Shown: positions 9,525 to 11,544, counted from the stretch's first letter. The stretch: DNA of 48,016 nt from an uncultured Isosphaeraceae bacterium (GCA_937907405.1 CALCIC010000118.1:1-48016); one strand, 5' to 3'. The notes: a model not told the origin generated them from the letters alone. Program-made: numbers and translations.

Positions 9525-9971
9525 TCACTTGACTTGCATAGCCGTCTCGGCCCGGAAGACGACGAGGCCCGGCACCTTCGCGTAGTCGCCGGCGTTGCAG
9601 GTCCAGACCGCCGCACCATGCGCCAGCGAGGTTGCGGCGATCCGCGCATCGTCTTTCAATTCTTGGCGCAGCCGAGCCGGGAAGCTCTGATGGGTTTGCT
9701 CGGCCGCGGCCTCATGCGGCAGGATCAGCCCTCGCCAGCGACCGAGATACTCGACCAGATCTTGGAGCAGATGGAAGGCCGGCGCGGGATCCCGACGCTC
9801 CCTCTTCCGACGGTCGATCAACGCCACCGCCCCGCCCATCATCTCATAGGCCGTAACGATCGTGATGCGAACGTCGCGATCCGGCGAGGCGTCCAGGCCG
9901 GATTCGATGAGGAGCCCAACCGGATCCCTCTTCTGCATATGACCGATGGCGTCGGTGTCGAGGATGATCAC
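9525..9971 (-). CDS. vapC: PIN-domain VapC family toxin
   Basis: 'IILDTD', 'TIVTAYE', 'DARIAATSLAHG' and 'WTCNAGDYAKVPGL' supply the PIN acidic active-site set. The GTG start overlaps the upstream stop (GTGA). Confidence 0.88.
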   Translation of the reverse strand: MIILDTDAIGHMQKRDPVGLLIESGLDASPDRDVRITIVTAYEMMGGAVALIDRRKRERRDPAPAFHLLQDLVEYLGRWRGLILPHEAAAEQTHQSFPARLRQELKDDARIAATSLAHGAAVWTCNAGDYAKVPGLVVFRAETAMQVK

Positions 9972-10321
9972 CCCCGCTGTTCCCCGTCCGCATCCGACTC
10001 CCGACGGCTCCTCATCACTTCGGAGTATTCGCGCGAGACGTCCTCGTCTCGTAATGCCGGGAGGGACGCCCGCCAAGGCTCGTCGCCGGAGGCGTTCCTG
10101 GGTAGGGGCGTGATGGTCACTACCACCCCGTCGCGTAGGCGCAAGGCCTCCTCGGGCGGAACGCCGTCGATAAAGACCGCCTGCCCGGTCGTCGAGGCCC
10201 CGGACAGGCGCAGGAGATCAGCGAGCGTCGCTCCCTCGGCGAGACGATAATCGCGGGCGCCGACGCCGGGACGGATGAAGTGGACGAGGATCTCCTCGGT
10301 CGCAGTCCTCGACTCATTCAT
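9968..10321 (-). CDS. Putative antitoxin with N-terminal ubiquitin-like (ThiS/MoaD beta-grasp) domain and acidic C-terminal tail
   Basis: Translationally coupled upstream of vapC. 'LAEGATLADLLRLSG...AVFIDG...LRDGVVVTITP' follows the ThiS/MoaD pattern. The tail is 'EPWRASLPALRDEDVSREYSEVMRSRRESD'. GGGAG RBS precedes ATG 10321. Confidence 0.75.
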   Translation of the reverse strand: MNESRTATEEILVHFIRPGVGARDYRLAEGATLADLLRLSGASTTGQAVFIDGVPPEEALRLRDGVVVTITPLPRNASGDEPWRASLPALRDEDVSREYSEVMRSRRESDADGEQRG

Positions 10322-10359
10322 CGCGGTCTCCCATGGGTTCGTCAGGTTCACCTCCTGAT

Positions 10360-10368
10360 ATTCTATCA
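10360..10368 (-). promoter_or_regulatory. Extended -10 element (TGnTAGAAT) for the Ubl-antitoxin/vapC operon
   Basis: Minus strand TGATAGAAT about 40 nt upstream of ATG 10321. Confidence 0.45.
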
Positions 10369-10524: not shown

Positions 10525-10959
10525 TCATGGGGTCTCGGGATCGGCCGGGAGGAACGCCGCCGGGCCGACGTGGAAGTATCGGGCGAGCCGCACGATTTGA
10601 TCCGTCGTAAGGTCTCGAACACCGCGCAGCACGTTCGAGAGGGTCGTTTGCGCGATCCCGACTTCCTTCGCAAGCTGCGTCTGGGTCAGCCGCCGCTCGG
10701 TCATGAAGAACCTCAGCATCTCAGCCGCCGAGGCGTCAGGGATGTGGACGTGTTCCTTCTCATAAGCCTCGACCAGGTCCGAGAGGACGTCGAGGTAATC
10801 GACGACGCCCTGGTCGTCTTCGCCGAGCGTCAGCACGTGGTCGAGCATCTTCGACGCGGCTTCCAGGTGGTCGTCGTCACGGATGGGCGTCAGCGGGAAC
10901 CGACGGATGAGCTTCATGTAGGATTTCGAGGGGGCTTCGCGGAGCACCGGAGGGTTCAT
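10525..10959 (-). CDS. higA: HigA family antitoxin (XRE HTH)
   Basis: 'PIRDDDHLEAA', 'YLDVLSDLVEAYE' and HTH 'LTQTQLAKEVGIAQTTLSNVLRGVRDLT'. ATGA overlap with the higB stop. Confidence 0.92.
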   Translation of the reverse strand: MNPPVLREAPSKSYMKLIRRFPLTPIRDDDHLEAASKMLDHVLTLGEDDQGVVDYLDVLSDLVEAYEKEHVHIPDASAAEMLRFFMTERRLTQTQLAKEVGIAQTTLSNVLRGVRDLTTDQIVRLARYFHVGPAAFLPADPETP

Positions 10960-11312
10960 CGGCTCTTTCCCTTCTTCGGCGGCTTCAAGAGCGGCGGCGA
11001 GAAGCACCCGCACGCGTCCTTCCACCTGTCCAAATCGTTTTCCGCGTGATCCATGATCTTGAGTATGTAGATCCGCTTCGAGCAGAATCGGACGCGGCCG
11101 ATCAAGCGATATCGGTTGGCCCCCACGTCGAAGACCACACAGTCGCCGACCTTGTCAGCTGACCCGAACGTCTGCTTCAGCCCGGCGAAATCCTTCCATT
11201 CGACGCTTCGGGCACCTTTGATCCAGTCTCGAAGAAACCGCTCGGCCTCCACGGCGTCGCCGCGCCGAGACCGCCAAAACGTCTTGATCCGCGCCTCGGA
11301 TATGATTCGCAA
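10956..11312 (-). CDS. higB: HigB family mRNA interferase toxin
   Basis: TTG start giving 'MRIIS...'; 'LKQTFGSADKVGDCVVFDVGANRYRLI'; toxin-first gene order. Confidence 0.9.
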   Translation of the reverse strand: MRIISEARIKTFWRSRRGDAVEAERFLRDWIKGARSVEWKDFAGLKQTFGSADKVGDCVVFDVGANRYRLIGRVRFCSKRIYILKIMDHAENDLDRWKDACGCFSPPLLKPPKKGKSR

Positions 11313-11358
11313 CGCGCCGCCCGCTCTCGAACTGAACTTCTGCTCGTCGACCCCACGA

Positions 11359-11378
11359 ATTATAACATATCGTGATAA
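11359..11378 (-). promoter_or_regulatory. higBA promoter (TGnTATAAT) overlapped by an inverted-repeat operator
   Basis: Minus strand TGTTATAAT at 11359-11367. Imperfect palindrome TTATAAC-N5-GTGATAA at 11360-11378, as expected for HigA autorepression. Confidence 0.65.
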
Positions 11379-11544
11379 CCAGGAAAGCTCAAAGCTGTGT
11401 GAAGCCACCAAGGCTCTTCACGACGATCGCCGGCGCGTTTCGTCCCAAGGCCGTAACCGAACCGCCCGCTGGAGACCCGCCGAGAGATCGGATAAGCTGC
11501 CGACTCGTGAGCAGGCGAAACACGGCGGACGAGGGGCGGGCGCG

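Follow-up and report, generated by a model that had tools for sequence, protein, structure and literature searches.

The window, by which we mean the whole 48,016-nucleotide stretch of DNA analyzed here, contains two overlapping genes on the minus strand. The upstream gene (positions 9968 to 10321, minus strand) is a putative antitoxin gene whose 117-amino-acid product consists of a β-grasp head, a linker, and an acidic helical tail, as judged from the open reading frame, homologues, conservation, and a structural model. The downstream gene (9525 to 9971, minus strand) starts with GTG and encodes a 148-amino-acid PIN (VapC-like) predicted ribonuclease, as judged from the open reading frame, Pfam, an alignment, and a profile. 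The tetranucleotide GTGA at 9968 to 9971 is common to the antitoxin stop codon and the PIN start codon. The initial annotation had noted this coupling to an intact PIN gene. The open reading frames bear out the overlap, and an alignment of 20 PIN proteins shows that the acidic residues are intact. A search with the 117-amino-acid protein returned 81 matches, one of them the window's own protein, and the homologues align from the Met at 10321. A likely ribosome-binding site, GGGAG, is found in the sequence at 10328 to 10332 (minus strand), 6 nucleotides ahead of that ATG.

The two genes may be transcribed from a promoter of their own. The sequence TGATAGAAT occupies 10360 to 10368 on the minus strand, 5' of the 117-amino-acid gene, and reads as a putative extended -10 element (TG-n-TAGAAT) serving both genes of the operon. 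An extended -10 had been assigned to this gene at the outset, and homologous upstream regions agree: in 22 of 32, a -10-like hexamer lies 42 to 67 nucleotides upstream of the start. A promoter scan that required a -35 box reported 0 sites. Within the 48-kb window, TGnTAnAAT matches only twice on both strands taken together, once before the 117-amino-acid gene and once upstream of the neighboring higB. We note that a second toxin-antitoxin pair lies directly upstream (10525 to 11411, minus strand), made up of a HigB_toxin gene (E = 1.7e-18) and an HTH_3 HigA-like gene and carrying its own TGnTAnAAT at 11367. No HigB/HigA-like pair was seen beside the Ubl-PIN pair at the other loci compared.

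The downstream protein is closest to VapC. Residues D5, E43, D108, and N126 are invariant among the 20 aligned PIN proteins, and at least 90% of them also keep D129. The window PIN taken alone falls under the Pfam cutoff (E = 0.028) and one relative clears it; a PIN profile matched 13 solved sequences of the VapC/FitB type with E values of 8e-9 to 2e-4. Mut7-C was not among the families listed for the 148-amino-acid protein, and its match is to PIN/VapC. The protein is a predicted ribonuclease. The same genome carries three further PIN modules with other partners (C329:10123-10859, minus strand; C130:1313-2099, minus strand; C407:2094-2815, plus strand).

The head of the upstream protein

The head is, by model and by profile, a predicted β-grasp (ubiquitin-like [Ubl]) fold. 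It spans residues 9 to 77 (10091 to 10297, minus strand) and is delimited by profiles, a predicted structure, and a tree with related stand-alone Ubls. SAMP2 was matched by 55 of 65 homologues and ThiS by 6 of 65 (E ≤ 0.1), and a profile of 39 head sequences matched MoaD 1vjk with an E value of 8e-5 as well as SAMP2 structures. AlphaFold2 gave a pLDDT of 73 for the whole protein and 83 for the head alone, and both models matched chains of the MoaD/SAMP/SUMO type. Elements of the head model (E2-9, E13-20, H25-32, E39-43, and E58-64) follow ubiquitin topology. Its best structural match was MoaD 6jc0 (Z, 9.5; rmsd, 2.1; 68 residues aligned), and seven chains scored a Z of at least 8. Foldseek returned no match at E ≤ 0.001, and its best hit, at 3.6e-3, was to a MoaD. 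The initial annotation had read a β-grasp fold here, and the SAMP2, ThiS, and MoaD profile matches and the fit of the head model to MoaD 6jc0 bear it out. Absence of an RHH, AbrB, Phd, or HTH signature from the first ~78 residues was likewise correct: none of these families is listed for the window's 117-amino-acid protein, and the fold of the head is neither that of HicB nor a known DNA-binding one. An AbrB/MazE or HicB fold was considered and rejected, as the matches are β-grasp and neither family is among the 50 matches listed. A match of the head to FdhE_N was set aside as noise, being found in 1 of 65 members.

One role for such a head would be to bind nucleic acid: its own promoter, for autoregulation, or an RNA, to guide the nuclease in the manner suggested for Ubl-Mut7-C. 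ThiS/MoaD-related domains fused to the Mut7-C RNase are proposed to bind RNA in the account of PMC1779556, and R38 of the head is at least 90% conserved. Most of the conserved head residues, however, belong to a generic β-grasp signature found also in MoaD. Moreover, the heads are net acidic on average (mean net charge, -1.8 for 39 heads), some members carry a separate HTH or RHH domain alongside the head, and no perfect inverted repeat (perfect arms of at least 6 bases, a measure that misses imperfect operators) was shared by 32 upstream regions or found in the window. Acidity, the lack of a shared perfect palindrome, and the extra HTH or RHH domains disfavor DNA binding, and we consider a nucleic acid-binding head quite unlikely.

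Stand-alone relatives of the head

Among the matches examined, the nearest relatives of the head are small proteins that end in Asn-Ala. The head profile was run over 1.84 billion representatives and matched 444 proteins at E ≤ 0.001, 94 of them at E ≤ 1e-10. Among the best 150 of the 444, which were examined, were 11 short proteins with LxRPGVG-like and VPxPKN[AG] motifs (P0179, P0185, P0192, P0196, P0200, P0203, P0213, P0221, P0222, P0224, and P0229; alignment A6), and 8 of these stop exactly at NA or NG. The stand-alone PKNA Ubls are 84 to 120 amino acids long with a variable N-terminal extension, and no Pfam or NCBIfam family exceeded its cutoff for them. Some of the next-nearest matches, again among the best 150 of 444, are tandem Ubls ending in GG or GN. 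The window protein shares the LxRPGVG and VPxP[RK]N[AG] motifs with the PKNA Ubls and runs on for 40 residues past NA. By blastp, it is 37% identical to P0192 over 76 amino acids, and comparison of head and PKNA profiles gave a probability of 99.2. In a tree of heads and related Ubls with 45 rows and 69 columns, which held 19 of 38 heads, left out the RHH-linked head, and did not reach bootstrap convergence, the heads and the PKNA Ubls formed one side of a branch (support, 100/99) and the GG/GN-ending Ubls and MoaD/ThiS formed the other. Classical MoaD was rejected as the nearest relative of the head: Chloroflexi and planctomycete MoaD/ThiS proteins were matched but lie outside the branch of heads and PKNA Ubls. 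The stand-alone PKNA proteins may be regarded as a candidate new, undescribed family of non-GG Ubls.

Further searches around the head gave the following. A scan of 400 other phylum genomes with the head profile brought up 25 weak matches; 18 of these were stand-alone proteins with a C-terminal Gly-Gly, and the remainder were mostly N-terminal in long proteins that resemble, by eye, ThrRS TGS domains. An Atlas search gave no usable match for the 117-amino-acid protein and no result for the stand-alone Ubl P0192, and no RNA run was among the holders listed by a sequencing-run search.

The junction between head and tail

The Gly-Gly position of MoaD and ThiS corresponds to Asn-Ala in the window protein. 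Stand-alone MoaD/ThiS matches stop 5 residues past a conserved Pro, which is P72 in the window protein, and Gly-Gly therefore maps to N76-A77 (10091 to 10096, minus strand), the C terminus of the stand-alone PKNA Ubls, and not to S78-G79. The sequence PRNASG had been said to end exactly where ThiS and MoaD end in GG; that assignment was two residues off. Nor is G79 a conserved feature of the junction. It is retained in 49 of 65 close homologues, in 13 of 35 diverse ones, and in just 4 of 46 aligned tail-bearing representatives of 50% clusters (49 with a tail, minus 3 that did not align at the Pro). A GG anywhere inside residues 72 to 82 was found in 3 of the 65 close homologues and in 2 of the 35 diverse ones that were aligned. 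The initial annotation had proposed control of the antitoxin through cleavage after Gly. We reject cleavage at the Gly junction, as the Gly lies two residues beyond the Gly-Gly place and is poorly conserved; in addition, tblastn searches of 105 loci (339 kb in all) and of the window turned up neither a JAB nor a ThiF/E1 homologue, with the genome's own ThiF and JAB proteins as queries, such that distant homologues may escape, and with many of the loci short. A possible processing site, if any, would be after A77, where the related stand-alone Ubls end.

The Asn-Ala motif itself has decayed in the tail-bearing proteins. An N[AG] terminus is found in 11 of 11 stand-alone PKNA Ubls (among the best 150 of 444 matches) versus 7 of 46 tail-bearing representatives. 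In close relatives of the window protein, [RK]N[AG] is present in 17 of 65 and Asn occupies its place in 35 of 65; the window protein itself keeps PLPRNA. The distance from the Pro to the Trp of the tail is 11 residues in 31 of the 46 tail-bearing representatives, and several fusions to domains other than PIN-linked tails join the head just past NA (best 150 of 444 matches). Decay of the NA motif beside a largely constant linker length, together with the lack of a JAB/E1 homologue in the 105 loci and the window, disfavors processing.

Might the head nonetheless be a sensor or decoy, such that a host or phage protein binds the PKNA-type Ubl, or cuts after N76-A77, and frees the RNase? Such a role would suit the close kinship of head and PKNA Ubls in tree and profile comparison, the PLPRNA kept by the window protein, and the reuse of the head before several toxin types. 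There is also a precedent, as the BubAB Ubl fusion is cut by a JAB peptidase past a conserved Gly in the system described in PMC11601596, and two JAB and two ThiF matches do occur elsewhere in the genome. Against it stand the poor retention of both the terminal motif and G79 among diverse tail-bearing members and the failure of the genome's own JAB and ThiF queries, which may overlook distant homologues, at the 105 loci and the window. Moreover, searches of 121 family, 401 class, and 401 phylum genomes gave matches at antitoxin places and no stand-alone PKNA Ubl among them. PADLOC assigned 0 families to seven proteins, and searches of viral contigs gave no confirmed relative of either the head-bearing or the stand-alone proteins. 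We therefore judge a sensor unlikely. Plasmid and phage records likewise held no match for the antitoxins or P0192. A viral fold search returned generic β-grasp proteins only (tail-tip proteins and viral ubiquitins), none at E ≤ 0.001, and viral mimicry was not accepted on such generic matches.

Distribution, linkage, and selection

The head is lineage restricted and patchily distributed. Named relatives of the 117-amino-acid protein belong to the Isosphaeraceae or to less precisely named Planctomycetota, and on this basis the window probably derives from the Isosphaeraceae. The head profile found 38 places (E < 1e-15) in 29 of 121 genomes of the same bacterial family and none in 8 genomes of the same genus, and the full-length profile found none in the 400 other phylum genomes searched. 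Synteny with PIN genes, to which the initial annotation had looked for support, is present: at 30 of the 36 head-bearing places that were read, PIN sequence comes next (21 full length, 9 split or partial). The other six comprise four with a DUF5678-type C terminus, one before PemK/MazF, and one remnant, and a stand-alone Ubl was found at 0 of 36. Head and PIN distances are correlated (Spearman, 0.78) across 30 intact modules, which as kin are not independent. Pooled dN/dS was 0.33 for the head (median, 0.27), 0.38 for the tail, and 0.24 for PIN in 17 unsaturated, nonindependent pairs. On these values, the head is maintained by purifying selection rather than decaying.

The pair need not be a toxin-antitoxin system. 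A nontoxic PIN nuclease could instead have the upstream protein as its Ubl partner, whether accessory or processed, in effect a split Ubl-Mut7C arrangement, and Ubl-PIN-like fusions outside a toxin-antitoxin context are on record in PMC1779556 and PMC5499597. The layout, however, is that of an antitoxin-first gene pair with a -4 overlap and its own -10 element, and the distribution is patchy, down to 0 of 8 genomes within the genus. Moreover, the tail is common to other VapC-linked proteins, the PIN protein is closest to VapC, and the head recurs on DUF433 and PemK-linked partners. A partnership of this nontoxic kind seems very improbable.

The tail and the exchange of heads and tails

The tail occupies about residues 81 to 110 (9992 to 10081, minus strand) and is the predicted PIN-neutralizing segment, as judged from conservation and from a helix in the model. 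Its conserved residues are W83, R84, and R107, its net charge is about -4.5, and the whole-protein model places a helix at 93 to 114. The same tail occurs behind coiled-coil and HicB-like heads (labels assigned by eye) before the same PIN group, including the HicB-like partner of the C329 module in this genome, and in a Pseudanabaena plasmid protein, WP_281009732.1, encoded before an annotated VapC and matched by the tail profile at 16.8 bits. The initial annotation had likened the tail to those of cyanobacterial and planctomycete VapC antitoxins, and the cyanobacterial protein upstream of VapC substantiates the resemblance. We note that WP_281009732.1 (L170:801-1013) is a coiled coil followed by the tail and is annotated as "transferase hexapeptide repeat containing protein," which looks to be a misannotation.

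Additional domains are found ahead of the Ubl. One subclade of 185-amino-acid proteins (P0063, P0064, P0070, P0073, P0074, and P0077 to P0082; loci L013, L044, L069, L082, and L111) has an HTH-like domain ahead of the Ubl and tail, with HTH_23 detected in 11 of 18. The N-terminal domain is HTH_23/HTH_29-like, its putative recognition helix is acidic, and we take it to resemble a transposase N terminus. At L091, HTH and tail remain, the Ubl is deleted, and a full-length PIN is kept. On these comparisons, it is the tail, rather than the head, that appears to carry the link to PIN. At L090 (391 to 1337, plus strand), an RHH domain, a diverged ThiS-like head, and a short acidic tail lie directly before a PemK/MazF gene. 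The L090 protein is a singleton in the protein collection and a long branch in the head tree, and its later scores are circular because L090 was part of the head profile. The idea that a Ubl replaces the DNA-binding head thus stands in part: a β-grasp sits where VapB has its DNA-binding domain, but some members have an HTH or RHH ahead of the Ubl.

Conversely, the head is found on other bodies. It precedes DUF433 in P0083 and P0108 and DUF5678-type bodies at several loci, with weak Pfam support at L084 and L089 (E = 0.003 to 0.004) and no Pfam match for L031. In the head tree, the DUF5678-type fusions occupy two separate places. Compared as DNA in blocks of 30 nucleotides, L025 and L031 agree at 27 to 30 positions across most of the head and at 6 to 9 just past it, and the upstream regions, including the promoter region, share 116 of 135 positions. 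The collapse of identity just after the head, together with the shared promoter region, suggests that domains were exchanged at their boundary not long ago. The head thus appears to be portable across unrelated toxin modules. Still other C-terminal bodies were observed on the head in P0155, P0215, P0151, and P0164, joined at or just after NA, and those of P0155 and P0215 presumably resemble ParD-like addiction proteins.

Discussion

We conclude that the gene pair is very probably a type II toxin-antitoxin system with a β-grasp-headed, antitoxin-like upstream protein. By analogy, the tail here is likely to neutralize PIN, whose toxicity is predicted on the same ground: in VapB, as described in PMC10127717, the C-terminal tail covers the VapC active site and the N-terminal domain binds DNA. 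The predicted RNase would be kept in check by the acidic tail at the C terminus of its partner, and proteolysis of the antitoxin would release the toxin, as in VapBC biology. The 117-amino-acid protein is likely VapB-like in role and outside the canonical VapB families.

What the head contributes is arrived at by exclusion. We slightly favor, over the other roles taken together, a folded, swappable, non-DNA-binding carrier on which the level, half-life, or assembly of the otherwise short tail would depend. A carrier head would govern stability or assembly of the tail and act neither as a repressor nor as a cleavable or conjugatable tag, and transcriptional autorepression, judged by comparison, would be absent. 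An argument by elimination makes the carrier role only somewhat the better bet. Toxin-like purifying selection on the head, and the fact that unrelated toxin modules have captured it more than once, would be expected just as much of a domain with a specific binding function. The NA end that the window protein and many close relatives retain counts against a carrier, as do the several non-PIN fusions joined just past NA. Moreover, bacterial Ubls with two β-grasp domains, or with DUF1508 and one β-grasp, are described as monomers in solution (bioRxiv 2024.11.21.623966), which speaks against a role in assembly. In its broadest form, the sensor alternative would make the Isosphaeraceae PKNA-type Ubl a plug-in sensor on the antitoxins of PIN, PemK/MazF, DUF433-type, and aspartyl-protease-linked modules, each a guard of a Ubl pathway, and this too we find doubtful.

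The pair combines features of several known systems. Like VapBC (VapC 5k8j and 6nkl; FitAB 2h1o/2bsq), it has a small upstream gene that overlaps the PIN gene and a modular partner with an acidic C-terminal tail. Unlike the RHH, AbrB, Phd, and HTH antitoxins of VapBC, its N-terminal domain is a β-grasp and no conserved perfect operator palindrome was seen. The partners of PIN enumerated in PMC2701414 include RHH, AbrB, PHD, COG2442/DUF433, COG2886, COG2856, COG2880, COG1753, and MerR, and neither that survey nor PMC4803016 uses the word "ubiquitin" in its main text. Those VapC partners of cyanobacteria and planctomycetes whose head is a coiled coil or HicB-like, such as WP_281009732.1, share the tail family and the PIN group and differ in the head, and the antitoxin role of that tail family is itself taken from gene position. 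Ub-Mut7C (PF14451 and PF01927; PMC1779556) also ties a ThiS/MoaD-related β-grasp to a PIN-like RNase. There, however, the two are described as one polypeptide with a zinc ribbon, whereas here they are separate genes and the nuclease is VapC-like. Ub-Mut7C has "no conserved genome context," according to Iyer, Burroughs, and Aravind (2006, PMC1779556).

Ubiquitin-like systems offer a second set of comparisons. The head has the fold and sequence signature of ThiS, MoaD, and SAMP but differs in having N76-A77 in place of Gly-Gly with 40 residues beyond, in having no E1 or cofactor genes found nearby, and in grouping separately with the PKNA Ubls. The Ubls of Bil and Bub systems, including the BubAB pre-protein, similarly place a β-grasp N-terminal to another module (PMC11601596; bioRxiv 2024.11.21.623966). 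In contrast to those systems as described, the family here lacks a conserved junction Gly, its operon encodes neither a peptidase nor an E1 or E2, and its C-terminal module is a toxin-partner tail. Finally, in Synechocystis, the toxin-antitoxin pair slr6057-slr6056 is linked with bacterial Ubl genes, but there the pair and the multiubiquitin cassette are described as neighboring, separate genes, and here the Ubl lies inside the antitoxin-like protein (PMC4963859). The initial annotation knew of no toxin-antitoxin family with this architecture, and a literature search, largely of openly available main texts, agreed in finding no description of a Ubl-headed antitoxin. Judged by sequence comparison, the locus is a lineage-restricted variant of a VapBC-type module; its head domain is undescribed, as is the group of related Ubls.

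A β-grasp in the place of the VapB DNA-binding domain would add a new domain class to the antitoxin repertoire. The Ubl-tail, HTH-Ubl-tail, HTH-tail, coiled-coil-tail, and HicB-like-tail proteins that accompany one PIN group form a natural series for the role of a non-DNA-binding head, and the analysis exposes a small family of stand-alone Ubls with an Asn-Ala end instead of Gly-Gly. Should the head be no more than a carrier, the variation is modest and lineage restricted. If, on the other hand, the head were a sensor, it would link toxin-antitoxin guards to bacterial ubiquitin-like systems.

A further arrangement of the head involves a protease gene. At L031 (325 to 1253), and also at L081, L084, L085, and L089, the Ubl head and a DUF5678-type domain are encoded before a gene for a retropepsin-like aspartyl protease; the aspartyl protease match at L031 has an E value of 1e-6. 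Several of the DUF5678-type copies are frameshifted. We presume that the pairing of a Ubl with an aspartyl protease recalls eukaryotic Ddi1.
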